Positions 8,268-38,496 are shown, counted from the first letter of the stretch. The stretch: DNA of 64,000 bases from a virus (IMGVR_UViG_2718218136_000001); one strand, 5' to 3'. Notes: generated by a model not told the origin, from the sequence alone. Numbers and translations are program-made.

Positions 8268-11200
8268 CTATATTTTTCCGCCTACGCCTTTAAACTTCTC
8301 AATAAACGAGACGATTTTCTGGAAAACTGCCTGTTTTTTCGTTTTATATTGCGGATTTAACGGACTAAGTTTTGGTAATGTTTCGTTTAATTCTGTGCCA
8401 TTTTCGGTGGCATATTCGCGTTTTAAAGACGTGCGAATATAGCGTTTTGCTGCATCTTCATTGAGATTTTCTTCTTTTATCAATGCTTCTGCTTCACGTT
8501 GCTGTTCGCGTTGAGCAAACGTAAAGAATGCGTCAATGATGCTGGCTTTGTCCGGTAAATCATCCAGGTTCGTTTGCTGAATAAAATCGACCACCAGGCC
8601 CTCTTTAGCACGGTTCCCTAGGCTTGAACGAATTAAGCGTTTGACCTCTTCGATCATTTCGCCCTTGCCTTTATTTTGTCTGTTGTGTTCGAAAATCAGT
8701 CCAAGGATATAATCCAGGTTTATTTCCTGAGACTTCAGCAAATCGACCTCAAAAACTACGTCATCCCAGTCAGTGGTTGATTTCTCTTTTTTCTCAGCTT
8801 CTTTCTCACGGCGCTGCCAGTCGCGAATATCGTTATAGGCAGAACGATAATCCTGAATCTTGCGATCAGCAGGGAGACGAATTGTTTGCAATTTAGCGAA
8901 CTTTTCATCATCCACATAATGCTCTGCTTTGAATTTTTCTACCGCAACAGGATCGCTAAGATCGATTTGTTGCAGGGCTTTTAGCGTGGCAAATTCATCA
9001 TAGTTTTGCAGGATGTTCTCGGCACGCAGGTATTCGCCAAACAGTTTAACGAAGTCTTTCTTCTCTTTTTCACTTTCAATACTGGTAGGGTCAGGGAACC
9101 GTTGTTCCAGTTCTGAAACTACTGTCATAAAGCCGCGTTTAGCTTCACCAGTAGCAGCATCAGTAAAGCCTTCCATATACTCTGTATAACTCTTTTCTAA
9201 CACCACATTTTTGGTGTTTTTGTCACCAAACAGCGTTATGGCATCAATAGTTGAGCGTTCCAGATCCCGGAAAGTGACGATATTACCGAAGGTTTTAGTA
9301 GCGTCATAAATGCGGTTGGTGCGGGAAAATGCCTGCATCAGGCCGTGAAAACGCAAGTTTTTATCGACGAATAGCGTGTTCAATGTTGGAGCATCGAAGC
9401 CGGTTAAAAACATCCCCACGACGATTAACAAGTCAACATCCTGATTTTTAACCCGCTGAGCCAGGTCCCGATAGTAGTTCTGAAAACCCTTGCTATCAGT
9501 ACTGAAATTCATTTGAAAATGGTCGTTATATTCACGAATTGCAGCATCCAGAAACTCTTTAGCACTGCTGTCCATTGCGCTGGTATCAAAAGTTTCATCG
9601 GAAATTTCACCAATGGCATTTTGTTCTTCATTAGCGGCAAAGGAGAAGATTGTCGCAACACGCAGCGGTTTATAGGTAGCCGATTTATTAGCGGCTTCTT
9701 CTTGTAACCGTTTAAACGTCGCATAATAGGCTTTCGCGGCATCCACGCTGCTCACTGCCAGCATGGCATTAAAGCCTTTGGAGCCTGGGAAGGTACGGTG
9801 GGTTTTCTGGCGGAAGTTGTTCAGGATATATTGCGTGATTTCCTGAATACGCATGGGATGAAGAAACGCCTGCTGATTTTCAGCCGCACTCAGTTTTTTC
9901 TCGTCAGTTTCTGTCTCTAAAGACTTAAACTGTGGCCGCACATCGTTGTAGTCCACCTTGAATTTGAGCACTTTTTCGTCACGAATCGCATCGGTAATTA
10001 CATACGAATGCAATTCACGACCAAATACGCTGGCGGTTGTTTCTGAGCCTAAGGCGTTTTCCGGGAAAATAGGGGTGCCGGTAAAACCAAACTGATAATA
10101 GCGTTTGAATTTCTTCTTCAGGTTTTTCTGCGCTTCTCCAAACTGGCTGCGGTGGCATTCATCAAATATAAACACCACTTGCTGATTATATACAGGCAGG
10201 TCGCTTTCTGCTTTCATCAGATTATTGAGTTTCTGAATAGTAGTGACGATAATTTTGTTATCGTCCTTATCCAGATTTCGTTTAAGGCCTGCGGTATTTT
10301 CCGAGCCGTTGACGCTGTCTGGCGAAAAACGCTGATATTCCTTCATGGTCTGGTAATCGAGGTCTTTCCTGTCGACCACAAAGAAGACTTTATCAATAAA
10401 GTCCAGCTCTGTTGCCAGACGCGCGGCTTTAAAGCTGGTGAGGGTTTTACCAGAACCGGTAGTGTGCCAGATATACCCACCGCTTTCCGGTTTTGACCAG
10501 TTCTTCGCTGTAAAGGAACTCTTAATTTTCCACAGAATGCGCTCGGTGGCGGCAATCTGGTACGGTCGCATCACCAGTAGCGTCTGACTACTGTCAAAAA
10601 CGCTGTAGTTCACCAGAACATTCAGCAGAGTATGTTTCTGGAAAAAGGTAGCGGTAAAGTCTTTGAGGTCTTTAATCAGCGTGTTGTCTGATTTCGCCCA
10701 ATTCATGGTGAAGTCAAAACTGTTTTTATCGCGCTTTGTCGTGTTGGCAAAATAACGGGTATCGGTGCCGTTAGAAATGACAAACAGTTGCAGATACTTA
10801 AACAGGGAATTTTCGCTGTTAAAACTCTCTTTACTGTAACGATGTATCTGGTTGAAAGCCTCACGAATCGCCACCCCGCGTTTTTTTAGTTCGATTTGCA
10901 CCAGCGGTAAACCATTAACCAGGATCGTGACGTCATAACGGTTAGCATGAGAACCCGTCTGTTCAAACTGCTGGATAATCTGCACCTTATTGCGCATGAG
11001 ATTCTTTTTATCTATCAAATAGATGTTCTCAAGTCGCTCGTCATCAAAAATAAAGTCGCAAATATAGTCGATATGGATTTTACGGGTCTTATCCAGAATG
11101 CCATCGCTCGGGTTGTCCAGATACTGCTCCGTGAAACGCCGCCACTCGCTGTCATTAAACACCACACCATTGAGGCTCTGAAGCTGTTGTCGAACATTGG

Positions 11201-11384
11201 CCAGCATCGCCGACTGAGATTTTACGGATATAAATTCATAGCCCTGATTTCGCAGGTCCTGAATCAGTTCACGTTCCAGGTCCGATTCGCTCTGGTAGCT
11301 GTCGCCTGTTGGCTCAGCTTTGATGTACTTATCAAGAACGATAAAGTTATTGGATTCAGCAATGGTGTGTGTCTGATGAGTCAT
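8268..11384 (-). CDS. hsdR: Type I restriction enzyme R subunit (type IC, EcoR124-like)
   Basis: 1038 aa; Walker A TGSGKT, DECH box (FDECHRSQ); own promoter region 11385-11505. Confidence 0.9.
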
Positions 11385-11505
11385 AGCGCATCCTTTGTGC
11401 CGTCTGGCAAGGGCCGGAAGGGGGGTAATGGTGACTTCCGGCGCGTAAAAAATAGTCTATATACTGACCGGGTGTTAAGGTGGTCCGATCGGTAGCAATG
11501 ATCAA

Positions 11506-12737
<1,232 letters not shown>

Positions 12738-12741
<4 letters not shown>

Positions 12742-14300
12742 TTTTGCACCTCGCAGCCTTCAATTTCAGCCACAATCGCATCAATATCTTTACGCAACTG
12801 GTCGATTTTGCTGACCGTGGTTTTCAGCTCAGCATTCAGCTCAGCAATATCGATAATTTCGCGGTTATCTTTCGCTTCCACATAGCTGCTCACCGACAGG
12901 TTATAGTCATTAGCAACAACGGTCTCAAACGCGACAGATTTCGCCAGATGAGCAACATCTTCCTTGCTGGCAAATACCTGCATAATCTGTTCGATATGGG
13001 TATCGGTCAGGATATTGTTGTTAGTCTCTTTTTTGAACAGTTCGCTGGCGTCAATAAACTGAACGTTGGTATCCGTTTTATGTTTGGACAGAACCAGAAT
13101 GTTTACTGCAATGGTGGTGCCAAAGAACAGGTTCGGTGCCAGTGAAATTACGGTTTCGACATAGTTATTGTCAATCAGATACTGACGGATTTTCTGCTCC
13201 GCGCCGCCACGGTAAAAAATACCCGGGAAGCAAACAATCGCAGCACGACCTTTGGCAGAAAGATAGTTCAGCGCATGTAGTACAAAGGCGAAGTCAGCTT
13301 TTGATTTGGGGGCCAGAACGCCAGCCGGGGCAAAACGCTCATCGTTAATCAGTGTCGGGTCATCGCTGCCAATCCATTTCACCGAATACGGCGGGTTAGA
13401 AACGATGGCATCAAACGGTTTTTCATCTCTGAAGTGCGGCTCAGTCAGTGTATTACCCAGCCTGATATCAAACTTGTCGTAGTTGATGTTGTGCAAAAAC
13501 ATGTTCATACGCGCCAGATTATAGGTCGTATGGTTGATTTCCTGACCGAAAAAGCCTTCTTCGATGATATGGTTATCAAACTGCTTTTTAGCCTGCAACA
13601 ACAGTGAGCCGGAACCCGCTGCCGGGTCGTAGATTTTGTTAACGTTGGTCTGCCCGTGCATAGCCAGTTGTGCAATCAGCCTGGAGACGTGCTGCGGTGT
13701 AAAGAACTCACCGCCTGACTTACCAGCATTCGCCGCATAGTTAGAAATCAGGAACTCATAGGCATCGCCGAACAGGTCAATCTGATGTTCGTTAAAGTCG
13801 CCAAGCTTTAAGCCTTCAACCCCTTTCAGGACCGCAGCCAGGCGGGCATTTTTATCCTTAACGGTGTTACCCAGGCGGTTACTGGTGGTATCGAAATCAG
13901 CAAACAGACCTTTGATGTCTGCTTCTGAAGGATAACCGTAAGCAGAACTTTCGATAGCAACGAAGATGCTGTTTAAATCTGCATTCAGTCTGTCATTGGT
14001 ATTTGCTTTCGCCGCTACGTTGCAGAAAAGCTGACTGGGGTAGATGAAGTAGCCTTTAGTTTTGATGGCATCGTCTTTAATATCATCAGTAATTACGCTG
14101 TCATCCAGTTTCGCATAACAGATACTGTCATCACCGGCTTCAATATAGCTGGAAAAATTTTCGCTGATAAAACGGTAGAAAAGTGCGCCCAGAACGTATT
14201 GCTTAAAATCCCATCCATCGACCGAACCCCTGACATCGTTAGCAATTTGCCAGATTTGACGATGAAGCTCTGCACGTTGTTGAATACTTGTCATTTTCAT
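12738..14300 (-). CDS. hsdM: Type I R-M N6-adenine DNA methyltransferase subunit
   Basis: 520 aa; NPPY motif (VSNPPYS) and AdoMet-binding [10 protein letters not shown]. Confidence 0.9.
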
Positions 14301-14476
14301 CCACTTATTTCAGGCTTATGTAATTGGATGTGATTCTACAGCAACTTGGATGCTTTAGCAGTTCGGATATTAGGCTACGAATGACCTGCCTAGAGGTTTG
14401 TTAAGCCGCAAAGTGCTGGTGCTTTATGTCTGTGAAGTTTATAATTGCGTACACATAACGAGTACACGAGGTATTT

Positions 14477-14698
14477 ATGCAATCCATTAACTTCCGTACC
14501 GCGCGCGGCAACCTTTCTGAAGTGCTCAACAATGTTGAAGCCGGGGAAGAGGTTGAAATCACCCGCAGAGGCCGTGAGCCAGCAGTAATTGTCAGCAAGG
14601 CTACTTTCGAAGCCTACAAAAAAGCGGCGCTGGATGCTGAATTTGCATCCCTGTTTGACACCCTGGACTCCACCAACAAGGAACTGGTTAACCGATAA
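14477..14698 (+). CDS. phd: Phd antitoxin (prevents host death)
   Basis: 73 aa, [39 protein letters not shown]...; matches P1 Phd as I recall it. Confidence 0.95.
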
Positions 14699-15078
14699 TG
14701 AGGCATATATCACCGGAAGAACTTATTGCGCTTCATGATGCGAATATAAGCCGCTACGGCGGCCTGCCGGGAATGTCAGATCCGGGTAGGGCAGAGGCCA
14801 TTATCGGGAGAGTTCAGGCCAGAGTTGCCTACGAAGAGATCACCGACCTTTTCGAAGTCTCCGCCACCTACCTGGTGGCTACAGCGAGAGGGCATATATT
14901 CAATGATGCCAATAAGCGTACCGCGCTAAACAGCGCGCTGCTATTTCTACGCCGTAACGGGGTGCAGGTATTTGATTCACCTGAACTGGTAGACCTTACC
15001 GTAGGGGCTGCGACCGGAGAGATATCTGTATCTTCTGTCGCCGACACGTTACGTAGATTGTATGGTTCTGCGGAGTAG
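14698..15078 (+). CDS. doc: Doc toxin (Fic-family kinase)
   Basis: 126 aa; overlapping start with phd stop; Fic-like [11 protein letters not shown] motif. Confidence 0.95.
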
Positions 15079-15082
15079 ATTA

Positions 15083-15262
15083 ATGGCACGTAAATACAAC
15101 AAGTTGTCCCGTGAAGCGTTAAAGATGCTTCTTGATGGCGTGAGCCGCCGCAAGGTAAAGCAATACCTGGTTGGTAAGCAAATTGGAGTCAGGACCGCTA
15201 TTGCTGTGTTATGCCGTCAGGAAATGGTTGTGCTTAAACAGAGAATGCCGGGCAGCAGATAA
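15083..15262 (+). CDS. Small basic protein downstream of doc (pdcA position in P1)
   Basis: ORF track 15062..15262; ATG at 15083 follows the doc stop. Confidence 0.4.
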   Translation: MARKYNKLSREALKMLLDGVSRRKVKQYLVGKQIGVRTAIAVLCRQEMVVLKQRMPGSR

Positions 15263-15289
15263 AGCCCAATCAGTGATTAAAGGTGTGAT

Positions 15290-16333
15290 GTGAAAGCCAT
15301 AATTACTCCCTTTGTACAGAAAGAGCTTGGCCTCGCCACGTTCAAAGTGGATCAGGAGGTCAGAAAGCTGGTGGAGGCTGGCCGTAAATTTATTATGGAG
15401 CCGGTGCCGCGTGAGTTAATCGAGCACATGGAAGACGGCCTCGTTGTTACCGAGCAAACCATGGCAACAAATGAGGCGTTGCAGCCGTTTTTTAACAGCG
15501 ATGAACTGTTTCGCCGTATTGGTGGAATTGACGCGCTGGTGGCGTGGTTGCGTAAGAAAGAGGGTCAATGCCAGGCCGCAGATCGTAGTTGGTGTGACAA
15601 CCATATTGTCCACGCTGAACGAGACAATAGCGCGGTGTTGTTGTGCTGGCATCACGATAACCATTATCGGATGCGTGGTTTTAATGAGCTGAAAGAAACG
15701 CTGCACAATAATCGCGTTAACTGGATACTGGATGTCGCCCGTCAGGAAATGGGCCTTTCAAATAGCCATGATTTAAGTATTCAGGAGCTGTGCTGGTGGG
15801 CTTTCATGCGCAACATGATGCACCTGATGCCGGAAGAAGTCTGCCGCATATCAATAAATAAGATGAAGGCTACTCCGCAGGATAGCGGACCTCTGAAAGA
15901 GGCGGATATTCGCCCGTATGACGATCGCGCTACAGCATATGTTCAGATGATGGAAGAACGCGCCGCGCCGATGCGTGCAAAAGTATGCCCTGTGGATGTT
16001 GACTCCGACCCTGGCATGGCGCATTTCAAAATACCAAAACTGCAATCGCTAAAATTACCTGAGTACATGGACTTTGTTGCTTCCCGTCCATGCTGTGGGT
16101 GTGGAGCTGCGGGAGCTGGCGCTCACATTACGCCTCATATCGTTCGTCATAGTCGATTATGCGCGCATGACATTTACGCAATTCCTCTGTGCCAGTCATG
16201 CCAGCGTGATATTGAGCGTGACCGCGATAATTGGGAGAAGACGCACGGTAGGTTGGCGATGCATCAACGATTGTTCTTTGATTACGCGCTTGGAGTCGGC
16301 GCTATCACAAGTCACTCGTCGAACGTTAGGTAA
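15290..16333 (+). CDS. Cysteine-rich protein downstream of doc (pdcB position in P1)
   Basis: 347-aa ORF; conserved synteny phd-doc-pdcA-pdcB-lpa. Confidence 0.5.
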
Positions 16334-24399: not shown

Positions 24400-24416
24400 C
24401 CATTAACGCTTAAATG

Positions 24417-24433
24417 ATTGCTCTAATTATTTG
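24417..24433 (+). promoter_or_regulatory. C1-operator-like site after cre
   Basis: attgctctaattatttg. Confidence 0.5.
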
Positions 24434-24449
24434 ATATTTATGGTGACAT

Positions 24450-24761
24450 GTGAGAAAGGATTTCAACATCGACGGAAAATATGTATTGCTGTCTGTAAGC
24501 ACTAATATTCAGTCGCCAGCCGTCATTGTCACTGTAAAGCTGAGCGATAGAATGCCTGATATTGACTCAATATCCGTTGCGTTTCCTGTCAAAAGTATGC
24601 GTAGTGCTGAACATTTCGTGATGAATGCCACCGAGGAAGAAGCACGGCGCGGTTTTGCTAAAGTGATGTCTGAGTTTGGCGAACTCTTGGGTAAGGTTAA
24701 CAATGTCCTTTCAATCAGTTCAGCAAGGTCCAAAGCGTTAACAGCTTCCATGATGAAATAA
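24450..24761 (+). CDS. Small protein downstream of cre (cra position)
   Basis: 103-aa ORF; synteny only. Confidence 0.45.
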   Translation: MRKDFNIDGKYVLLSVSTNIQSPAVIVTVKLSDRMPDIDSISVAFPVKSMRSAEHFVMNATEEEARRGFAKVMSEFGELLGKVNNVLSISSARSKALTASMMK

Positions 24762-24893
24762 AAAAAAGCCTGGCAAGGAGCCAGGCTGCACAAAAGAGCG
24801 GGTTTGTATTCCACATCCAATCAATCAAGAAGGAGTATAGCACACAGGTACTGAAGTGAAAAAATGTGATTCGCGATAAACAAAATACCTATC

Positions 24894-24910
24894 ATTGCTC
24901 TAATTGATTG
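24894..24910 (+). promoter_or_regulatory. C1-operator-like site upstream of ref, with an overlapping second partial site
   Basis: attgctctaattgattgctataattg. Confidence 0.55.
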
Positions 24911-24977
24911 CTATAATTGAGCCGCAGTTTTTGTCAACTACGAAGACGTTGCCATTACTTCACTCCTTGACATCATT

Positions 24978-25003
24978 GGCGGCCATTAGGCCGCCTTTTT
25001 TTT
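24978..25003 (+). terminator. GC-rich hairpin (ggcggcc atta ggccgcc) followed by T8, ending 5 nt before the ref ATG
   Basis: Read directly. Confidence 0.6.
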
Positions 25004-25008
25004 GCCAT

Positions 25009-25452
25009 ATGAAAACAATCGAACAAAAAATTGAACAGTGCCGCAAGTGGCAGAAGGCAGCCAGAGAACGAGCGATCGCTCGGCAACGGGAGAAGTTGGC
25101 TGATCCGGTCTGGCGAGAATCTCAATATCAGAAAATGCGGGATACTCTCGACCGCCGTATCGCTAAACAGAAAGAGCGCCCACCAGCCAGCAAAACGCGG
25201 AAAAGCGCGGTAAAAATAAAATCTCGTGGCTTGAAGGGGAGAACACCAACGGCGGAGGAACGGCGCATCGCCAATGCTCTTGGCGCTCTCCCCTGCATTG
25301 CCTGCTATATGCATGGAGTAATATCTAATGAGGTGTCTCTGCACCATATCGCCGGTCGTACCGCGCCGGGTTGTCATAAAAAGCAATTGCCACTTTGTAG
25401 ATGGCACCACCAGCATGCAGCTCCGGCTGAAGTAAGAGAAAAATACCCATGA
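25009..25452 (+). CDS. ref: Ref HNH endonuclease (recombination enhancement function), truncated by in-frame TGA
   Basis: MKTIEQKIEQCRKWQ...; HNH signature SLHHIAGR...CRWHHQ; the reading frame continues for 38 more codons after the TGA to a TAA at 25567-25569. Confidence 0.8.
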   Translation: MKTIEQKIEQCRKWQKAARERAIARQREKLADPVWRESQYQKMRDTLDRRIAKQKERPPASKTRKSAVKIKSRGLKGRTPTAEERRIANALGALPCIACYMHGVISNEVSLHHIAGRTAPGCHKKQLPLCRWHHQHAAPAEVREKYP

Positions 25453-25757
25453 CTGGTCCCTGTTCATGCCGATGGTGTGGTTGGAGGCAAGAAAGAATTC
25501 ACCTTGCTGAACAAGTCAGAGATGGAGTTACTGGCTGACGCCTATGAAATGGCAAACATCATGCACTAATAAATATATTATTTTTAATGATAAATGATTG
25601 ACAACTGACAAGTGACTTCAGTCAGAATCATCACACGCCCGGTACGGATGGATCCCTTTTCAAATATTCCATGGACGGCACAGTCTGAGTACCGGGCGCT
25701 ACCTTCAGTTGTATTGCTAAGCCGCCGCTGGTGGCTTTTCTTTTTTGTAGGGGCGCT

Positions 25758-26399
25758 ATGGATAAGAAAATATGCGTTGTTTCAATGAGCGTCGGCAAAC
25801 CGGCGTCAATGACTGCTGCATGGATCAACAATGAGCTGATCATGGCTGAGCGGACCAGCTACCCTGAACGCCGCCGCGATATGGAACTCCAGCTGCTGCG
25901 CGAATTGCGAGAAAAAGAGGAAAAGGGTTTTATCGTGCTGGTGGAAGAGGAAAACAGCTTTATTACCGGTCGAGTTGGCCAGCGTGTAAGGTTGCGTGAT
26001 CCCTTCATGAACGGCAGACCGGTACTGATTGAAGCAATGCAGATTTACAAGGAATTGGAACGCCAGAAAGCGATCAAGTTACCGCGCAAGGAATCCGGCA
26101 AATACATCCTTCACCAAAGCATCTTCGATTCCGAACACGATAAAAAAGGCGATGAATTTTTCAACATCAACTGGAGCGAAATAACGACAGAACATGTTCT
26201 GACGTTACTATGTTGCTTTGCGACGGAATACAACAACGTTGCCAGCGCCGACTACATCAGGGCAATGGCTGGAGAAGTTGAGGCCCGCCAGGAGCCATCG
26301 TTACTAAGCCCTCTGATTAACAGAATTCGCGGAACCCAAACGCTGGCACAAAAACGGGTGCCGAAAGGGGAATTAACAGGAAAAGGAAATTATCTATAA
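25758..26399 (+). CDS. Protein at the mat (particle maturation) position
   Basis: ORF track 25731..26399; ATG at 25758 (MDKKICVV) has a better RBS; synteny. Confidence 0.45.
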   Translation: MDKKICVVSMSVGKPASMTAAWINNELIMAERTSYPERRRDMELQLLRELREKEEKGFIVLVEEENSFITGRVGQRVRLRDPFMNGRPVLIEAMQIYKELERQKAIKLPRKESGKYILHQSIFDSEHDKKGDEFFNINWSEITTEHVLTLLCCFATEYNNVASADYIRAMAGEVEARQEPSLLSPLINRIRGTQTLAQKRVPKGELTGKGNYL

Positions 26400-26455
26400 A
26401 CGTCAATGCATTAGGGTATACTTCTCCATAGAACTATAAGTAAATGGAGTAAGTA

Positions 26456-27556
26456 ATGAGCGAATATGTTGAGTTAGCATACGCTGCCGCTACAAGCAGG
26501 CTTTGTCTATTTACCGGGACTGGCTTTTCAAAGGCAGTCTCGAACGGCGAAGCACCAACGTGGAAAGAACTATTAAAAAAAGTTTGCAGCAAAGTTCACA
26601 ACGCCAAACAGTTGGAAGACACGTTATTCCCTGATGATAAACCACCAGCACTGAGTCTTGAAGAAGCCGCACAAATACTATCTTTGAAGCTCAACATTGA
26701 AGGCAAGTCGATTTATGATGAAATTGTTGACATCATATCTCCAATACAACTTGGCGAAGATATATCAAATATAAAGGATTTTTTTCAAAAAAGAACATTT
26801 CGTGTCATTACAACGAATTATGACAAGTTAGCTGAATACTTAACTGGAGATGAGGAGGTTCAGTCTATTACCCCAGGCTTACCTATTCCTAAATATCCCT
26901 CCAAAGTTAAAATATATCATGTCCATGGTTCTATTGACTCTCCACAAAACATGATTGTTACATCAGAAGACTATTTTAGGTTTATAAACTCCGACACTTA
27001 TTTCTCTCGAAAACTTAGCACGATGCTGCATGAAAATACAGTTGCGATATTAGGCTATTCTTTAAGCGACACGAACCTAAAAGCAATTATAAATGATTAC
27101 AAAATATTCTCGAAAGGTAACACTCTGTGCTCTAATATATTTTTCATCTCTCGCAGTGAAGTAAGTCAAGATATGAAGGATTATTATTTTTATTGTTTTG
27201 GAATACGAGTAATTGACAACACCGAAATAGACTCTTTCTTTAAGAGATTGAGCATTAACATAATGTTAATTGAAGGCGTCATAGCAAGAGCCAGACAAAG
27301 TATAAAAAGAGTTTTATCAGGCACTTTTAACTATAAGGATGAATACATTAGATTAGAAGATTCATTCTATCAAATAACTTCCTCGATTATATCTGAGGGT
27401 TTCGACTGGAATGACGGACAAGTAGTTGATTTTTTTCAAGAGAATAATAAAACAAAAAAGAGACTTAACAAGAGAGAGTGGTGCTTGGGAGCAATACGAG
27501 CAGCTTGCAAAATGGCTTATATATTTCGGCAGCCTTTTAGAAATTGGTGGAACTAA
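26456..27556 (+). CDS. SIR2-family protein (putative NAD+-depleting defence effector), possibly continuing to 27746 after a +1 frameshift
   Basis: FTGTGFS, TTNYD and YHVHGS motifs typical of defence-associated SIR2 domains; AT-rich; overlapping ORF 27426..27746 in another frame looks like the true C-terminus. Confidence 0.65.
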   Translation: MSEYVELAYAAATSRLCLFTGTGFSKAVSNGEAPTWKELLKKVCSKVHNAKQLEDTLFPDDKPPALSLEEAAQILSLKLNIEGKSIYDEIVDIISPIQLGEDISNIKDFFQKRTFRVITTNYDKLAEYLTGDEEVQSITPGLPIPKYPSKVKIYHVHGSIDSPQNMIVTSEDYFRFINSDTYFSRKLSTMLHENTVAILGYSLSDTNLKAIINDYKIFSKGNTLCSNIFFISRSEVSQDMKDYYFYCFGIRVIDNTEIDSFFKRLSINIMLIEGVIARARQSIKRVLSGTFNYKDEYIRLEDSFYQITSSIISEGFDWNDGQVVDFFQENNKTKKRLNKREWCLGAIRAACKMAYIFRQPFRNWWN

Positions 27557-27814
27557 GTATGAAAATGAATATTTAGACGCCGTTGAATACTCAATGTCCA
27601 ACATGAGCAAAGAAATGAGATTAGGTTATTCGTGGCATGCTTATAGAGCTTGGGAAACAAGATGGTCCACAATCATTGCTTCAAATCGATTAATAATAAA
27701 AAACGCATCGAAGAAATTGGCGTACTGGAGGATGCTAATTCTATAGTAAAAGATATAGTGTAATTGAAGAGCGGCAAAAATTTAACGGGCAGCTACAACT
27801 GCCCGATATATAAA

Positions 27815-28063
27815 TCAATCCGCATTCAGGAGCAATGCGTTATCTATGATGATCTGCTCCCATTCTTCGAATGCCCGGTCGCGGACGCCCTGGGGAACGC
27901 TGTTAGTTTTGAAATCGACGACCGTACGCCATTTCCCGTCCGGACGGTACATGCGCAGAGCTTTACTTCCCCCTTCCCTGCGCACCTCAACGTTATGCTT
28001 ATCAGCAAACTCTTGTAATGCTCGTAGCGTCCCATGCTTTACTGTGTAGTATCGCTTTTTCAA
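27815..28063 (-). CDS. lxc: Lxc/Bof-like C1 co-repressor
   Basis: 82-aa basic protein upstream of darB; size and position as P1 lxc. Confidence 0.55.
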   Translation of the reverse strand: MKKRYYTVKHGTLRALQEFADKHNVEVRREGGSKALRMYRPDGKWRTVVDFKTNSVPQGVRDRAFEEWEQIIIDNALLLNAD

Positions 28064-28500
28064 GTTTTCTCTCCAGCCTGTGCCAAGGCTTCAACTTCCA
28101 AATCGTAAGACTCAAACTCATAGTCCTGGTCGTCAACTTCTTCAGGCACTGGCAGTAAATGCCAGGCTGAGTATATCTGACCATTATCAAAACGCTCCTG
28201 GCTGTAGAGCGTCGCGGCTATGAGTGTTAGCGCCGGGCGGTCATAACGGTAAATTTTGCGAACGTCACGGTCAACGAGACGACCGAAATTACCATAACCG
28301 CGCTCCAGTAATAATTTTTTAATTTCCGGCCAGTATGGACCATAGCTGCGGTACAGGCGGGGATTTTTCAGTAATCGCCCGCGTAGCCCTGACAGGAAGA
28401 AATCAACGTATTCGTCTTCTGTCTTTCCTAACAACGCTGTACGGAGTACCGCCTCAAGATATGTTTTATTCGGTTTTATTGTATCAGATAGTGTGGCCAT
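28060..28500 (-). CDS. Ulx-like protein
   Basis: 146 aa, ATGA-coupled to the lxc-like gene, immediately upstream of darB. Confidence 0.45.
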   Translation of the reverse strand: MATLSDTIKPNKTYLEAVLRTALLGKTEDEYVDFFLSGLRGRLLKNPRLYRSYGPYWPEIKKLLLERGYGNFGRLVDRDVRKIYRYDRPALTLIAATLYSQERFDNGQIYSAWHLLPVPEEVDDQDYEFESYDLEVEALAQAGEKT

Positions 28501-28533
28501 ATTATGCGACGCCCGGCGAACCGGGCGCTCCTG

Positions 28534-31500
28534 TTATGCGTATTGTTGGATGACGGCCAGAACGTCCGCCACGTTGTGTTTTGTCTCGATAATCCACCAG
28601 TTACCCGGGAAATCGCTGTTCTTCGCCTTCGCTGGCAGCCAGCGAGCGCCGAATTTCGCCTTGATTGCGTCTTTCGCACGGAAAAGAACGCCTTTCATGC
28701 CTGAGGCTTCCTGAAGCCCAAATACCTCGCCAGCGGCGAATTTTGGTGCGTACATCATCTTCAGGTCGGCGGTGGATACGCGATAATTCAGACCAAGAGA
28801 CTGAGCTATGCTGGTGGCATCACCCTGTATTGATGATAACTCTTCTTGTTTCTCGTTTCTGGCGGCAATTTCTTCCTCCGTGATGTTGCCAAGGGCCAGG
28901 TTTATCCGATCAGCGTCGGCCTGTTTCTCTTCATCGGTGCGCCCGGCAAGAACCGTGTTAATTCTCTGCAATATCTCCACATGATTCTTGCGCATGCTGA
29001 GCAATTCCGGCGTAACCTCGTTAAGATCCACCAGCCCAAGGATGGCAAGGTCGGAAAACATTGATACCAGGTTGTAGGTCATGCGATAGCTGAGTTGGCC
29101 ATAGGCTGATGGCAACTGCACCGCATCCATTTGATAGGCATCCATAAATTTAGAGCCGTCGTTTACGACATCCGCAATTGCAGGTGTGATTTTCCCTGTG
29201 GTGGCGGCCTCCCTGATTGCTGTTACCCATGATTGAGTCAGTGCGGCGACTGCATGATTCAGATTGGCTTCCCGTTCTGCTGCGATGCGCGCGCTTGCTG
29301 AGTCCATTGCCTGCTTGATCTCGGCTTTATTGCTGTAAATGCCAATGGTGCCAAACTGTGCTGTGGTGATCTCATAATCTGACGCCCGGAACTCATGGGT
29401 ACCGAAAATGGCATTGGTGACCTCAAGTTCAGAATCCCCGTTACGAGTAGCCCCCTGGCTTGTTTTCTCCGGCATTTTTGCGATCGCATCCGCTATTTTC
29501 TCCTGAATTACTTCAGGGGATAGCGTATCTCCGTATGACGCGATTACATCGCCATAATTGGAGCCAAACAATTCAACCAGGAATGTTTCTGCCGAACGGA
29601 TCTGGCGGTTATTCCCTTCCGACATCATACCAAGCACCCATTTTGCAATTGACGACTTCAGCGCGCCGTCACGGCGATCCGGGTAAACCGCATGCTTCAG
29701 TGGGGCCGTATAGGAACCAACAAAATCAATGCTATAGCCTGACTCTGTAGTCTGAACGCCGTATGAGTCAGTGATTTTGATCATGCCGCGCTGCTGGAAA
29801 CGGTAGAAATCGTCACAGGAAATGATGTCGTTAATCCCGGCGATGGAGACGCCACCACTGATTTTCTGCATAACAGCATCTTCATCGGGAGTTACATCAA
29901 CCTGTTTATCCAGCGTCTTCACATCCCAGTTACCCGATTTGGTGCCTTTGAAGGTAAAGATGATCTCCACGTCTGCGCGCTGGCTGTCGAAGTCCAGCGA
30001 CTTAATGCGAACGATATCACCGGCACAATCATAGTATTGGCCTACACGCCATGAGCGATCGCCGATAACAAGGAACTCATTCGCATGGTTAACCAGATCA
30101 GGATCAACATCCAGAATGCCTTTATTTATTGCATCCTCCACCAGCGGGCGCAGGCGTTTGATATCCGTCGCGGCCTTCTGAGTACGGTTCAATAATTTCT
30201 CATAGCGGGAGATGGCCTGAGAGATATTAGCCTTGCGCTGAATGGCGCTTTTCAACGACGCGCGATACTGTGCTAACAACATACGGTCTGTGTGATGGAC
30301 GCTACCCCAGCGGGCTTTCCAGTCTGCGTTATCAGCTGCTTTGGCCATTACCGCCTGTTTGAATTTGGCGACGTCGGCGGTGGTCTTTTCAAGTTCCGCT
30401 TTGCTTCGCTCCAATTCAGCGGTAAGTACCTCCACATCCTCACCAGCTGCGTGCTGCGCCTTGATGTAGTTCTGAAGGTCGATAGTAGCCTGTTCTTTCT
30501 GGCGAGCGCGTTTCGCAGCTTTCGCCTTATCCATTTGAACCTGCATCATTACCAGACGTTCGCCGTCATCCTTCGCGGTATACATCTGCATTTCGATCAT
30601 GTCATTGGCGTCGGCGTTCTCCATTTCTGACTTATCTGAACGGAGGATATCGGAGATCCAGCCTGCTTTACGCTTCAGCGTCTTCAGTCGGTATTCATCG
30701 AAAGACCCCTTGCCGCAGTAGTAGTGAACGCGAACGCTTGCACGGTTGGAGCCAACTCGTGCACCGCGACCGTTACGTTGTGCGATACTGGCTGGTGTCC
30801 ACGGCAACGTCAGGTGGTGGATATCCGTCGTTCCTCGATGCAGGTTGATACCCACCTCTGCCTTTTTGTTGCAGATGATGATCGGAGTCCGGCCCTCCTG
30901 GAAGTCGGCTGCAATCTTTTCCAGACCGCCCAACGACATTTCATTTTGCTGCGCGATATAGGCGTCATACAGAGCCATTTGCTCGTTGTATTTCGCTATC
31001 TGTGCATCTGTTGGTTCATCCGGTAGCTCTTTCGGCGGTTTAACCGCTTTCAGTTTCTTACCGGTTTTACCTGCCTCGGCAACCGTCTGAGCATTCAGGA
31101 TCCCCACCTTTGAAGGTTCAAGGTTTAGAGCATTGCAGATAATGCGCTTGAGCTTCTGGTGCTGCGTTTTTTCATCGGTGAAGATGATTTGCTTACCTTC
31201 CGGGAAAAACTCCTTCAGCGTCGCGATCAGCTTCGCGTATTTCGGCGTAACGGGGTGAGTTACGGTCAGTTCGTCAATGCCAAACCTGGCCAGGCGCTTA
31301 TTCACTTCCTGCTCGAACGCTTCCGGAACCTGCAACTGAATAAACTCGCCCTTATCTATCAGGGAGTATTGCGATTGCTGCGTGATTGAATCATCACTGT
31401 CGTCGTCTTCGCTGGTGGCTTGTTTAGGCAAACTGTCCGCAAGCTGCTGCACCGCATCGGCGTACTCCGGCAGGAAACGATAGGTGATCCGGCGATAGTA

Positions 31501-34500
31501 CAGGTCCATGTCAGTACATACGCGGTCCATATCCCTGATTATTGAGAAGATCGGACGGGCTTTCTCGTGCTCAATCACGCCGTCTTCATTGACCGAGGTC
31601 GTTACGCCATTGTTGGCTTTGGCCGCCGCTTCCGCCTGCTGACGCAATTCTTCATACGCCGCCAGTTGTTCTTCAGTAAGTGGTGCATCCTGCTGGTGTT
31701 CGTCCAGCTCCGGGATCTCCACGGTATCCTTAACGTCTTCCGCCGTTTTAAGCGTTACCCAGCGATGGAATATACCGCGCAGCGCATCAAGGTTTTCAAA
31801 GCCCACCAGCGCCATTTTTTCTTCAACTTCACCGCTAATTTTCTGTACCGTTTCCAGCCTGGTCTTGCCGAAGAATTTAACGAAGTCATCAGGACCGTAG
31901 ATCCCCATGTTCTGCCAGTATTCCTTCGGCAGAACATGAGAAAGCATGTTGTATGCATCGATCGGGGTGTTAACGACTGGCGTTGCAGTCAGGAGAACCG
32001 GCCCGCGCCCGCCATTCTTTTTCATCAGGTACGCGTTTTTAATTGCCATATCTCGCGCCGATTGCGCCACCGCGCTGGTGGGCAGATAGGCCAGTTGTGA
32101 CGCTTCGCGACCATTTTTATAGCTATTGCGGTAGTTGTGACCTTCGTCAGCGATCACACTATCGAAGCCCATATCCTCAAAGTACGGATACTTCTCTGCT
32201 TTTTCGGTGCCGGTATCTGAATACTCCGACAATACCCGGCGACGCGCGGCCTCTTTGCGGTGGGAGTCGGAGTCCATTGCGCTGGCTACGCGTCCGGCGG
32301 CAACGAAGTCATAAAGCATATCCTGTGCATGCTCATCTACGGTGTCATCACGTAGCGGAATGCGGGCGTATTGTTCTTTGGTAAACACGACTGCACGGTA
32401 ATTTGAGTGCGGGATCGCGTTCATCCGCGCCGTGATAGTGGCTTCATCTGCCAGCTTAAGAGCATCGCGCATAACTGGAGTGCCATCAGTACCAAGAACA
32501 GGTTTACCGTTCTCATCGAGCACCGGCACCTGGCGAATCTGATCACCATCCATCAGCACATCAAGACCGACGAACAGGTAGTTACTGAATGCCTCTTCAC
32601 TCAGGAATTCTTTTGCTTCGTAATACCAGTTTTCCAGCACTGATTTAGGCACTACATACGCAGTACGGGTGGAGCGACCGTTCTCATAGTTGAACGCCTC
32701 AAGCGCCAGCGCGGTCGTGGTTTTACCCAGCCCGGTGCCGAAGCCCAGGATGCCGCGCCCATCTTCGGACAGTCGGCGCACCTCGCTATTCTGGTAATCA
32801 AATGGCTGGCGCTTACCGCTTAATCCCTTCAACCCAAGCGGATCGCCAGAGTGTTCATACGGGATATTGCTATTGAACACATCGTTGTATTTGGCAACCA
32901 GCTCATCGTAGCGATCGTGCGTCTTGATCCACTTATTGAACTGGTCCTCAAGCAGTGCCATCTGCTCGCGGTAGCCGTTCGCCGTCGCGCTATCTTTGCC
33001 ACCGATACGCGCACCATTGAGATACTTTTCCAGCTGTGCCGGGAACCCGGTCGCGTTTTCACCTGATTTACGGTCCCACTCGTAGCGGATCTCGCCTGTT
33101 TCTTTATCCTTGCGCTGGACGACACCGTATCGGTGCCCGACGAACAGACCATCACCACCGTGATAGGTGTCAGAAACCATTTCGTCGCCTTCCAGCTGCA
33201 CTGACTGCACATAGCGCAGATCCGGATAGCCGTTTTCCTGCAAAAACTCCAGAATGACGGAACGGTCGAACCAACGGCTATTGAGCTTAAACCGGATATT
33301 CTCTGCTGGCGTCTTGATGCGCTTCTCTTCGATCGCTGCCAGCTGATTAAGGACGTTGTTCTTTACTGGACCGTCGGGGAGCGTGGCGAGGAATTCCTGT
33401 TTTGGAGCCACTATCTCGTTAATGTCGCCGCTGGTGGCGCGGGCGAACGGAACAATCCCGCCATACGGTGAAACCGCAATACCAGGAGTGCTGGCCAATA
33501 AATTAAGCAACTCTTCATCACTGGCTGGCAATTCGCCGGTAAACGCAAGGCGGAAATCATCGAGCTGGATTGGATCGCGGGTAAGATCGCTATAGAGATA
33601 ACGCAGGGTGTCCTGATAGCTGGTGGAGTCATAACTGGCGCTGGAATCATGCGTAACCAGCTTTCCTGTCAGCTCGTCAGAAATAGTGCCATCCAGCTTA
33701 ATTGCACCACGGAAAGCAAACCAGGCGCGCGCACCGCTTCCCGATAATTTAGCTATCGGACCGCGACCAGGGTTACCAAAACGGTCAATCTCTGCCTGCA
33801 AACGGGATACCAGAGAAAGGCGCTGCTGTTCGATTTGTTCAGCACTATGCCCGGCGGCCTTCATATCCTGATATTCAATTAACATCCGGCCAATCATCGC
33901 CCCACGATACAAGCGTTCACGGTATTTTTCAGGCTGGCTGTTAATCCAGTCCACCAGCGGCACCATATCGTCGCTGATTGATGTGGTGTACTTATCGCGG
34001 ACATTTGCCATCTGGGTAAATGTCATACCGAGACGGCCTTCTGTTGTAGTCAGGTTACGCTGAAGAGCCTCCCAGCTATCCGCGCCATAACTGGCAGCAT
34101 CAATTTTAAGTTCCTTCCCGGCATCAGCTTCAATCCAGCGACCACCAGCATATTTTTGCCATACGCCATTAATCAGGCGCATTTCCCCTTCACCAACAAC
34201 GTCTGCGGTCAGTGACGGTTCAGCCATATCGAGCAAAGACCAGTCGATACGGCTTTCGAAACGATGAATCAGCTTCGCTTTAAGAGCCTGGTTATCAATC
34301 TGACCGTCGGCACGAACCTCAATACGCCCCTGGAAGCCCTTTTCCTGGGTGCCATGAACAAACCGGCGGCCATCCTTTTCAAACCACTTGCCAGAAATAA
34401 ACGTTGGCCAAAGCACATTTGCTGATTCAAGAGTGCTTTCATCCACCAGGGAGATTTTCTCAGCCATCTCTGCCGGATGTTTGCGCATCAGCACCACATC

Positions 34501-35301
34501 AACGATTGTACTGGTCCCGTTTGCGTCAAAAGTACCGGTAGGCAAGCGGTGAGCGCCAAGAAATTCAGCTTTACGGGATAGGCGCAGGCGTAACCGCTTC
34601 ATGTTTGAACCTGAAACAATGGACGGCGGCACAATCACACACATGAATCCGCCAGGCTTTATCTTGTCCAGCATGCGGAGCATGAAGTAAGAACCCATGT
34701 CCGTTTCTTCTGCGTAAGGCTTATCGATGTTGCGTGTGTTATCACGACCACCGAACGGAACGTTACCCACAACATGGTCGAATGAATCGTTAGGCGTGCT
34801 TACAGCCAGCTGTTCGAACGGGGAAATCTGTACGCTGTCTTCCGGGTGTAACAGCTGGTTTATACGACCGGAAACACTGCTGATCTCAGTCGCGGTCATC
34901 ACCGTACCAACCGGTTTTGTCTCATTAAAAACGCCGGTGCCCGCCGATGGTTCCAGAGTGTTACCTACGTCCGCGCCGTAGAGCTTCATGATCTCCCAGA
35001 CACCTTCAGCGATCGGCTTTGGTGTGTAATATTCGGAGACGGACCCGCCAATGCCGCCTTCACCGGTGTACCCAGCCAGGATCTGGCGCTGTTCATCTGT
35101 CAGTGTCGCGCCGTCCACCAGCGAATTAAGCAAATCTATCGCCTTCTGATTCGCCTCCCGGCGCAGTCGGTCATAGCTTTTGCCTTCCACCTTTTCCACG
35201 CCGTATTTAATCGGCGCTCGGTGAGATGTTATTGCCCTAATGTATTTTAATATTTCGCTGACACTTGAACAGCGAAACACCCCCATAGATAGCTTGTTCA
35301 T
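28534..35301 (-). CDS. darB: DarB antirestriction protein (methyltransferase plus helicase domains)
   Basis: 2255 aa, same length as P1 DarB; helicase Walker A GFGTGLGKTTT and DEGH box. Confidence 0.9.
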   Translation of the reverse strand: MNKLSMGVFRCSSVSEILKYIRAITSHRAPIKYGVEKVEGKSYDRLRREANQKAIDLLNSLVDGATLTDEQRQILAGYTGEGGIGGSVSEYYTPKPIAEGVWEIMKLYGADVGNTLEPSAGTGVFNETKPVGTVMTATEISSVSGRINQLLHPEDSVQISPFEQLAVSTPNDSFDHVVGNVPFGGRDNTRNIDKPYAEETDMGSYFMLRMLDKIKPGGFMCVIVPPSIVSGSNMKRLRLRLSRKAEFLGAHRLPTGTFDANGTSTIVDVVLMRKHPAEMAEKISLVDESTLESANVLWPTFISGKWFEKDGRRFVHGTQEKGFQGRIEVRADGQIDNQALKAKLIHRFESRIDWSLLDMAEPSLTADVVGEGEMRLINGVWQKYAGGRWIEADAGKELKIDAASYGADSWEALQRNLTTTEGRLGMTFTQMANVRDKYTTSISDDMVPLVDWINSQPEKYRERLYRGAMIGRMLIEYQDMKAAGHSAEQIEQQRLSLVSRLQAEIDRFGNPGRGPIAKLSGSGARAWFAFRGAIKLDGTISDELTGKLVTHDSSASYDSTSYQDTLRYLYSDLTRDPIQLDDFRLAFTGELPASDEELLNLLASTPGIAVSPYGGIVPFARATSGDINEIVAPKQEFLATLPDGPVKNNVLNQLAAIEEKRIKTPAENIRFKLNSRWFDRSVILEFLQENGYPDLRYVQSVQLEGDEMVSDTYHGGDGLFVGHRYGVVQRKDKETGEIRYEWDRKSGENATGFPAQLEKYLNGARIGGKDSATANGYREQMALLEDQFNKWIKTHDRYDELVAKYNDVFNSNIPYEHSGDPLGLKGLSGKRQPFDYQNSEVRRLSEDGRGILGFGTGLGKTTTALALEAFNYENGRSTRTAYVVPKSVLENWYYEAKEFLSEEAFSNYLFVGLDVLMDGDQIRQVPVLDENGKPVLGTDGTPVMRDALKLADEATITARMNAIPHSNYRAVVFTKEQYARIPLRDDTVDEHAQDMLYDFVAAGRVASAMDSDSHRKEAARRRVLSEYSDTGTEKAEKYPYFEDMGFDSVIADEGHNYRNSYKNGREASQLAYLPTSAVAQSARDMAIKNAYLMKKNGGRGPVLLTATPVVNTPIDAYNMLSHVLPKEYWQNMGIYGPDDFVKFFGKTRLETVQKISGEVEEKMALVGFENLDALRGIFHRWVTLKTAEDVKDTVEIPELDEHQQDAPLTEEQLAAYEELRQQAEAAAKANNGVTTSVNEDGVIEHEKARPIFSIIRDMDRVCTDMDLYYRRITYRFLPEYADAVQQLADSLPKQATSEDDDSDDSITQQSQYSLIDKGEFIQLQVPEAFEQEVNKRLARFGIDELTVTHPVTPKYAKLIATLKEFFPEGKQIIFTDEKTQHQKLKRIICNALNLEPSKVGILNAQTVAEAGKTGKKLKAVKPPKELPDEPTDAQIAKYNEQMALYDAYIAQQNEMSLGGLEKIAADFQEGRTPIIICNKKAEVGINLHRGTTDIHHLTLPWTPASIAQRNGRGARVGSNRASVRVHYYCGKGSFDEYRLKTLKRKAGWISDILRSDKSEMENADANDMIEMQMYTAKDDGERLVMMQVQMDKAKAAKRARQKEQATIDLQNYIKAQHAAGEDVEVLTAELERSKAELEKTTADVAKFKQAVMAKAADNADWKARWGSVHHTDRMLLAQYRASLKSAIQRKANISQAISRYEKLLNRTQKAATDIKRLRPLVEDAINKGILDVDPDLVNHANEFLVIGDRSWRVGQYYDCAGDIVRIKSLDFDSQRADVEIIFTFKGTKSGNWDVKTLDKQVDVTPDEDAVMQKISGGVSIAGINDIISCDDFYRFQQRGMIKITDSYGVQTTESGYSIDFVGSYTAPLKHAVYPDRRDGALKSSIAKWVLGMMSEGNNRQIRSAETFLVELFGSNYGDVIASYGDTLSPEVIQEKIADAIAKMPEKTSQGATRNGDSELEVTNAIFGTHEFRASDYEITTAQFGTIGIYSNKAEIKQAMDSASARIAAEREANLNHAVAALTQSWVTAIREAATTGKITPAIADVVNDGSKFMDAYQMDAVQLPSAYGQLSYRMTYNLVSMFSDLAILGLVDLNEVTPELLSMRKNHVEILQRINTVLAGRTDEEKQADADRINLALGNITEEEIAARNEKQEELSSIQGDATSIAQSLGLNYRVSTADLKMMYAPKFAAGEVFGLQEASGMKGVLFRAKDAIKAKFGARWLPAKAKNSDFPGNWWIIETKHNVADVLAVIQQYA
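35231..35247 (+). promoter_or_regulatory. C1-operator-like site in the darB/prt divergent region
   Basis: attgccctaatgtattt. Confidence 0.4.
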
Positions 35302-38130: not shown

Positions 38131-38496
38131 TCACGCTGCCTCTTTAATGTTGGCGGCTATCCATGCCGCCGTGTGCTGTTTAACCTGGTCCAGGTCGATG
38201 TATGTGCCAACATATTGACTCAAATCCTGCAAGGTACCGATAAATGCATCGGTGCTCTGATCGACGAATTTATCAGCCAGGAAATCAGCAACCAGTTTTG
38301 GCACACCATCATGTTCCGAAGGTTGTTTTTCCTCGCCACTACCGCCGCCGGACGCGCCGTACCCCATCTGTTGCATGATCTGGTCAATTTCATCGCTGAT
38401 ATCCAGCAACTCCATGCCACTCGCGGTAGCAGCTTTGGACATCAGAGAATCCAACTTGTCGCTGAGGTCCATTAACTCAATAGCTGATAGTGTCAT
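38131..38496 (-). CDS. Small acidic protein at the ddrA position
   Basis: 121 aa, immediately downstream of darA. Confidence 0.5.
   Translation of the reverse strand: MTLSAIELMDLSDKLDSLMSKAATASGMELLDISDEIDQIMQQMGYGASGGGSGEEKQPSEHDGVPKLVADFLADKFVDQSTDAFIGTLQDLSQYVGTYIDLDQVKQHTAAWIAANIKEAA

Follow-up and report, generated by a model that had tools for sequence, protein, structure and literature searches.

An EcoR124-family type IC restriction-modification cassette with a duplicated recognition domain in the pap-phd interval of a P1-like phage-plasmid

Introduction

How does a full type I restriction-modification (R-M) system come to lie next to the phd-doc addiction module of a P1-like phage-plasmid, where reference P1 carries none, and which DNA target would such a system recognize? 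We addressed these questions for a viral stretch of 64,000 nucleotides (nt) (IMGVR_UViG_2718218136_000001; hereafter, the window), for which an initial annotation, made from the sequence alone, had described a complete EcoR124-like type IC system, with an hsdM-hsdS operon and a separately promoted hsdR, inserted upstream of phd-doc. Taken as a whole, our analysis makes it highly probable that the locus is a complete EcoR124-family cassette that entered the pap-phd interval of a P1-like backbone by homologous exchange, and that it carries a tandem-duplicated hsdS gene with a predicted palindromic target.

Results

A complete and intact EcoR124-family system

Comparison with protein families and with solved EcoR124 structures confirmed that three genes on the minus strand constitute a complete, intact EcoR124-family (type IC) R-M system. 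The cassette and its genes are as follows, with protein lengths in amino acids (aa):

8193..14400, minus strand: hsd cassette without P1 counterpart, standing in place of P1 84483..87968 (BLASTN against P1)
12738..14300, minus strand: hsdM, N6-methyladenine (m6A) DNA methyltransferase subunit, 520 aa (Pfam N6_Mtase, 6.5e-121, and HsdM_N; NCBIfam TIGR00497, 647 bits)
11506..12741, minus strand: hsdS, specificity subunit with two identical target recognition domains (TRDs), 411 aa (Pfam Methylase_S, twice)
8268..11384, minus strand: hsdR, ATP-dependent translocase/nuclease subunit, 1038 aa (Pfam HSDR_N, SWI2_SNF2/ResIII, T1R_D3 and EcoR124_C, the last being PF12008 at 2.1e-71)

Both TIGR00348 (hsdR) and TIGR00497 (hsdM) scored above the NCBIfam cut-offs, and PADLOC labeled the three genes REase_I, Specificity_I, and MTase_I. 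HsdR aligned end to end with the EcoR124I HsdR structure (PDB 2w00, residues 1-1038), with ~12 substitutions in the ~970 residues shown, while HsdM differed from the EcoR124 M subunit (PDB 7bst_D) at only 5 of its 520 residues; together with the EcoR124_C domain, this near-identity upheld the EcoR124-like assignment, as the family matches did the claim of a complete type IC system. None of the three open reading frames (ORFs) is broken, and the catalytic motifs are kept, namely NPPY in HsdM and GSGKT, DECH, and the D..ELK nuclease motif in HsdR. Read along the minus strand from 14300 to 8268, the genes follow the order hsdM-hsdS-hsdR expected for type IC, whereas types IA and IB have the order R-M-S. 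A 4-base-pair (bp) overlap between hsdM and hsdS indicates that these two genes form one operon, which is followed by a gap of 121 bp before hsdR. The layout of HsdS, when compared with 7bst_A, likewise fits type IC, with a short N-terminal conserved piece, TRD1, a helix containing TAEL repeats, TRD2, and a C-terminal helix.

One recognition domain used twice in hsdS

An internal duplication of hsdS was overlooked in the initial annotation. Upon comparing the gene with itself, we found TRD1 and TRD2 to agree in every position (481 of 481 nt, 160 of 160 aa), the second copy starting 609 nt (203 aa) after the first, with the following elements:

12247..12727, minus strand: repeat copy 1 (gene nt 15-495), the N-terminal TRD, equal to the EcoR124I "GAA" TRD; perfect 481-nt direct repeat
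11638..12118, minus strand: repeat copy 2 (gene nt 624-1104), the same TRD in C-terminal position, 100% identical to copy 1
12193..12228, minus strand: three 12-bp repeats (TAEL; 12-nt period, three copies) in the central conserved helix D1, the spacer-length determinant

Against EcoR124 HsdS (7bst_A), the N-terminal TRD, D1, and the C-terminal helix D2 are essentially identical (residues 1-165 match apart from L4M and N166D), while the C-terminal TRD is different; the protein is built from parts ~100% identical to a solved structure, and its three-TAEL D1 equals D2 in length. As the 481-nt repeat is perfect and the N-terminal TRD matches that of EcoR124I, both TRDs of the window HsdS correspond to the GAA-reading domain of EcoR124I.

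The symmetric allele is found, identical or 98% identical, in plasmids from poultry, fox, pig, sheep, gull, human, and E. marmotae, and DNA identical to the window hsdS is present in at least eight PLSDB records. An assembly artefact as the source of the 481-bp repeat was ruled out, since independent assemblies from several countries and hosts share the duplication. An exact look-up of the HsdS protein in a collection of 15 billion sequences found it absent, a result that is uninformative on rarity. Among the 120 best HsdS cluster representatives, the GAA TRD occupied only the N position in 98, only the C position in 13, and both positions in 4, with three further representatives (one from Snodgrassella alvi) carrying more diverged GAA TRDs in both positions. 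These distributions indicate that the GAA TRD is a mobile module. In CP085065, the GAA TRD stands in the C position with the same D1-TRD linker as in the window allele, and the window allele would result if an EcoR124II-like allele and a CP085065-like one recombined once within D1.

A predicted palindromic target

The N-terminal TRD of EcoR124I reads GAA (PMC2877798), and since both TRDs of the window HsdS are copies of this domain, a palindromic target is predicted, most likely GAA(N8)TTC with m6A at the third base of each strand. The expected spacer length follows by analogy with characterized enzymes. According to PMC3874165, two TAEL repeats give an N6 spacer in EcoR124I and three give N7 in EcoR124II, while the enzymes with two GAA TRDs, HsdS(delta50) and EcoR124I-NT, methylate and cleave at GAAN7TTC (PMC2877798, PMC3320862, and PMC3874165). 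As two GAA TRDs with two TAEL repeats thus give N7 and a third repeat adds 1 bp, an N8 spacer would be expected for the window allele.

An allelic series of hsdS

Exact versions of this hsdS gene with one, two, and three units were found in public plasmids, a series that points to ongoing unequal crossing-over of the 609-bp unit, by which hsdS would expand and contract. In CP074035, hsdS measures 627 nt and matches the window allele with one unit taken out, without a single mismatch, and CP076303 has the same one-unit form with 2 mismatches; presumably, such a form acts as a homodimer of unchanged specificity. The hsdS of CP099227 has three units in frame (1845 nt, 614 aa); with 609 nt deleted, CP099227 shows no difference over 10.2 kb from sibling plasmids of 95,217 bp that come from the same pig farm in the UK, such that plasmids from a single farm already differ in hsdS unit number. 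The three-unit allele occurs in a single assembly and could be a (long-read) assembly error. Side by side, CP099227.1 (locus L004, 4501..6345) and its sibling CP057845.1 (locus L007, 4501..5736) have one extra 609-bp unit as their sole difference at the locus.

Substitutions within the symmetric allele are mostly synonymous and concerted between the two copies: the allele of CP086387, 98% identical to that of the window, shows the same synonymous substitutions in both copies, which argues for concerted evolution of the copies. A further allele, P0001, is the same hsdS allele with two TAEL repeats. We tentatively raise the idea, which we consider rather doubtful at present, that hsdS is a two-tier repeat-driven switch that combines crossing-over of the 609-bp unit with slippage of the TAEL repeats between two and three copies. 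If so, enzyme stoichiometry, activity, or spacer length would shift on short time scales, and if the three-unit protein or the one-unit homodimer were to differ in specificity or be restriction-deficient, the phage-plasmid could reversibly retune or silence its barrier without acquiring new DNA.

Decayed forms of hsdS were also observed, namely a copy interrupted by insertion sequence (IS) element IS1 on a plasmid of E. coli ES6 (NZ_JCAPUC010000003.1, locus L011, 1201..3213) and a one-unit copy with a frameshift near its 5' end in NZ_CP010146.1 (locus L005, 4501..5128).

Replacement of a P1 segment

The window has a P1-like (Punavirus) backbone with genes in P1 order (pmgS, pap, phd, doc, pdcB, lpa, pacAB, c1, cre, darB, and darA) and Pfam matches to Cre, DarA, and Ant. 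The cassette is bordered by two backbone neighbors:

7495..8001, plus strand: pap (3'-phosphatase), left neighbor beyond hsdR (Pfam HAD_PNKP; annotated in P1)
14477..15078, plus strand: phd-doc addiction module, right neighbor, divergent from hsdM (Pfam PhdYeFM_antitox and Fic/DOC; 98% identical to P1)

The position next to phd-doc given in the initial annotation was correct, with phd (14477..14698) and doc (14698..15078) directly beyond hsdM and with hsdR facing pap. Aligning the window to the P1 genome (AF234172) by BLASTN, we found that 7000..8192 matched P1 up to 84482 and that 14401..15500 matched from P1 87970, so that 6,208 bp in the window replace 3,486 bp of P1. On the left, the break falls 5 bp ahead of the start codon of pmgT; on the right, it coincides with the stop codon of humD. 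In AF234172, the interval holds pmgT, pmgU, pmgV, upfM, upfN, upfO, hot, lxr, and humD and no hsd gene, which bears out the earlier statement that P1 carries no restriction genes at this position. The displaced P1 segment had no match anywhere in the 64-kb window when we checked for its relocation. Hence, the cassette is an allelic replacement inside a variable interval and not the simple insertion that the initial annotation had described.

The flanks are 96-98% identical at the nt level to P1, P7, and their relatives (98% to P1 next to the cassette), and P7 has a third, different gene set between pap and phd, which marks the interval as variable. At the cassette borders, we found no transposase or IS, and the junction sequences showed no visible target-site duplication. 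Most likely, to judge from these sequences, the cassette arrived by homologous exchange via the conserved flanks and not by transposition.

A long-known and common arrangement

The P1 record itself already flags both junctions. Its misc_feature annotations describe P1 84263-84482 as 96% identical to sequence downstream of the EcoDXXI hsd locus, P1 84399-84482 as 98% identical to sequence downstream of hsdR on R124/3, and P1 87969-88647 as 98% identical to sequence upstream of the EcoDXXI hsd locus, and the break points in the window (P1 84482 and 87969/70) coincide exactly with the ends of these features. Type IC hsd loci were reportedly described as flanked by P1 DNA by Tyndall et al. in 1997 (Mol Microbiol 23:729; cited in PMC12707154), to go by the title of that work and the P1 annotation. 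The phages phi456 and vB_EcoM-673R5 carry the same cassette in the same place between pap and phd, and since they hold it instead of pmgT-humD, this P1 segment must be dispensable for phage growth.

Upon surveying 5,426 complete E. coli genomes with a 300-bp probe across the hsdM|phd junction, counted at a coverage of at least 80%, we found the junction in 700 (about 13%), almost always on plasmids. The left junction was fully covered in 223 genomes, with many more records matching only from probe position 67 onward, the start of the 84-bp flank that R124/3 and P1 share. From these junction counts, the hsd arrangement is commoner than that of reference P1. In PLSDB, at least 142 plasmids cover at least 80% of window positions 1-25000. 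The arrangement is, therefore, long known, very common, and not unusual.

A type IC set outside this context was seen in the unrelated 110-kb Klebsiella phage vB_KpnS_p4727 (PQ492289.1), in which hsdR-hsdS-hsdM at 3993..12015 is 82.6% identical at the nt level to the window cassette and adjoins a gene with a GmrSD_N domain (type IV restriction-like), without phd-doc or P1 flanks.

Regulatory sites around the cassette

Three candidate or conserved regulatory sites lie in or beside the cassette:

11449..11478, minus strand: promoter-like site, candidate Pres, in the 121-bp hsdS-hsdR gap (TTAACA-18-TATTTT, 9 of 12 consensus matches)
8050..8074, minus strand: terminator-like hairpin downstream of hsdR, inside the P1-homologous flank (10-bp stem with 6 GC pairs and a T-run; dG, the folding free energy, -21 kcal/mol)
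8001..8017, plus strand: C1 repressor operator OpmgT, ATTGCTCTAATAAATCT, equal to P1 84293..84309, annotated there as a C1 operator

In type IC systems, hsdR generally has its own promoter. The sequence of the window is compatible with the separate hsdR promoter of the initial annotation, with the candidate Pres as the site in question; the promoter scan neither supports nor refutes it, as promoter-like sites occur at chance level in the region (13 versus 12.1 expected). The hsdR 5' leader (11400..11440, minus strand) has an 8-bp GC-rich hairpin, GCCGGAAG...CTTCCGGC, which follows the promoter-like site and precedes the ribosome-binding site of hsdR.

The hairpin at 8050..8074 is strong and oriented for leftward transcription, the direction of hsdR. 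P1 has it too, but without any leftward gene ahead of it, and it could be left over from a forerunner of that interval that bore hsd. OpmgT and, just downstream of it, the PpmgT promoters (8001..8045, plus strand) were kept from P1 though pmgT-pmgV are gone, and they now face the 3' end of hsdR; we speculate that lytic de-repression of PpmgT could drive antisense transcription through hsdR. Directly downstream of PpmgT, a 28-codon hydrophobic ORF, MNTAFKIIMTAIYFWLFSITFGGIVAHG (8102..8188, plus strand), ends at the left junction and is kept in P1 with one substitution, where it is unannotated.

A second cargo slot and the Dar proteins

The initial annotation had placed defence cargo at two separate hotspots and P1's type III system elsewhere, both of which we could corroborate. 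Between mat and darB, an ORF of 366 aa with a SIR2_2 domain (26456..27556, plus strand; context 24400..28534; Pfam 3e-23) starts ~60 bp after the P1 homology ends just past mat, at P1 coordinate 3462, and occupies the slot in which P1 carries the type III genes res/mod. In PADLOC, this ORF matched best the candidate system PDC-S25 (1.7e-27) and more weakly ThsA, LmuA, and Dsr1, while the adjoining ORFs (25731..26399, 27426..27746, and 28060..28500) had no PADLOC match.

Beyond this slot lie an ORF of 2255 aa (28534..35301, minus strand), annotated as darB in related P1 records, and darA (38493..40412, minus strand). Virion DNA of P1 is shielded from type I restriction by the Dar system, and DarA and DarB are packaged in the P1 head; the element thus combines a type I restriction barrier with P1's own means of countering such restriction.

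Discussion

By homology to EcoR124I, HsdS and two HsdM subunits would form a methyltransferase (M2S) that marks the DNA of the element and its host at the third A of each half-site, and the addition of two HsdR subunits would turn it into an ATP-driven translocating endonuclease (R2M2S) that cuts incoming unmarked DNA. Such a system would serve to keep out phages and plasmids that lack the modification, from which both the lysogen and the phage-plasmid would profit. Restriction alleviation of type IC systems, as described in PMC12707154, lets the system establish in new hosts. While gene content, near-identity to EcoR124, junctions, duplication, and allelic series can be read directly from the DNA, activity, target sequence, spacer, and promoter arrangement are what we infer from it.

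Several other explanations deserve weight. The cassette has a lower GC content (0.39-0.47) than its flanks (~0.46-0.53) and is absent from reference P1, as would be expected of an autonomous mobile insertion into an otherwise P1-identical backbone, that is, a new defence island specific to this element. Such an insertion is, however, very improbable: the corresponding 3,486 bp of P1 are missing from the same place, with no copy elsewhere in the window, the borders are devoid of transposase, IS, and visible target-site duplication, and identical junctions recur in hundreds of plasmids, in phi456 and vB_EcoM-673R5, and, by the P1 annotation, in EcoDXXI and R124/3, which makes the arrangement old and shared rather than element-specific. 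Improbable, too, is a system that is present but non-functional for restriction, either because the symmetric HsdS cannot assemble or because the locus serves only as a methyltransferase or epigenetic marker. Decay does occur within the allele family, as the IS1-disrupted hsdS of the ES6 plasmid and the frameshifted one-unit hsdS of CP010146 illustrate, but the three ORFs of the window are intact with conserved catalytic motifs, the symmetric allele recurs in plasmids of many hosts with mostly synonymous and concerted substitutions, and EcoR124I-NT, the engineered symmetric enzyme, both methylates and cleaves. We also see little chance that the main role of the system is plasmid stabilization by post-segregational killing alongside phd-doc instead of phage defence. 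The locus does adjoin the addiction module and is transcribed divergently from it, and R-M systems in general can act as poison-antidote pairs (PMC10879196), yet the linkage is explained by the backbone position of the variable interval, and accounts of restriction alleviation and of gain or loss without host killing for type IC enzymes (PMC12707154 and PMC3874165) argue against strong addiction.

A more substantial alternative, though still an unlikely one, leaves the system active with GAA(N7)TTC or another spacer as its target. The prediction of an N8 spacer proceeds by analogy, and several points weigh against it. The only characterized GAA/GAA enzymes have an N7 spacer, and spacer rules failed in staphylococcal half-HsdS dimers, in which the spacer did not simply follow the length of the helix (Bower et al. 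2018, PMC6158711). In the window, GAAN8TTC occurs at 19 sites and GAAN7TTC at 25, with 22 expected for each; neither is avoided or enriched, and with site counts at expectation, the window offers no independent support for N7 or N8. Searching the literature for type I motifs GAAN8TTC or GAAN7TTC of natural origin, we found only papers on the engineered EcoR124I-NT. The N7 enzymes, however, use two-TAEL helices, while the window allele has three TAEL repeats, and in EcoR124II, EcoDXXI, and the Tn5-truncated EcoDXXI homodimer, the third repeat lengthens the distance between the methylated adenines by 1 bp (PMC3874165). The two-TAEL sister allele P0001 would, moreover, be the N7 form. We therefore keep GAA(N8)TTC as the most likely target.

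The initial finding itself changes little, about one complete E. coli genome in eight having this junction. Its use lies in showing once more that fixed slots of P1-family phage-plasmids, two in the present case, take exchangeable defence cargo. The symmetric hsdS, in turn, is a natural illustration of the shuffling of TRD modules, of TAEL spacer change, and of homodimeric S subunits, and the series of one-, two-, and three-unit alleles provides a ready strain set for examining how S-subunit architecture sets specificity. Overall, the system is a member of the EcoR124 family with an uncharacterised, predicted-palindromic specificity allele, ordinary as a whole and a modest curiosity in its hsdS.

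Comparison with known systems

The closest relatives are EcoR124I and EcoR124II (plasmids R124 and R124/3), with which the window system shares the M-S-R order, near-identical HsdM and HsdR, the N-terminal TRD, D1, and D2. The number of TAEL repeats in D1, three, is that of EcoR124II, and the window also has the 84 bp beyond hsdR that are common to R124/3 and P1. In contrast to EcoR124, the C-terminal TRD, which there reads RTCG, is replaced by a second GAA TRD, for which reason the predicted target of the window system is palindromic and not GAAN6/7RTCG. The carriers differ as well, EcoR124 residing on an IncF conjugative plasmid and the window system on a P1-like phage-plasmid. The type IC loci flanked by P1 DNA (EcoDXXI, EcoR124/3, and EcoprrI) as well as phi456 and vB_EcoM-673R5 have P1 junctions identical to those of the window on both sides, whereas hsdS varies in its TRDs from one of these elements to another, as specificity alleles would be expected to; in the phi456 record, the hsdS region is annotated as several separate ORFs.

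Natural palindromic specificity from one TRD used twice is also described, in PMC3874165, for the type IC system NgoAV of Neisseria gonorrhoeae. There, hsdS is fragmented and its first ORF homodimerises, while the window has an intact S that carries the TRD twice and has one- and three-unit variants. With HsdS(delta50) and EcoR124I-NT, the window system would share two GAA TRDs per enzyme and a palindromic target. These engineered enzymes are homodimers of a truncated S (a TRD and D1 with two TAEL repeats), whereas the window S is one full-length natural polypeptide, TRD-D1[3xTAEL]-TRD-D2, and its natural one-unit relatives have the form TRD-D2, as opposed to TRD-D1 in the engineered enzymes. 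By this comparison, the window hsdS allele is predicted to be a natural counterpart of the engineered EcoR124I-NT.

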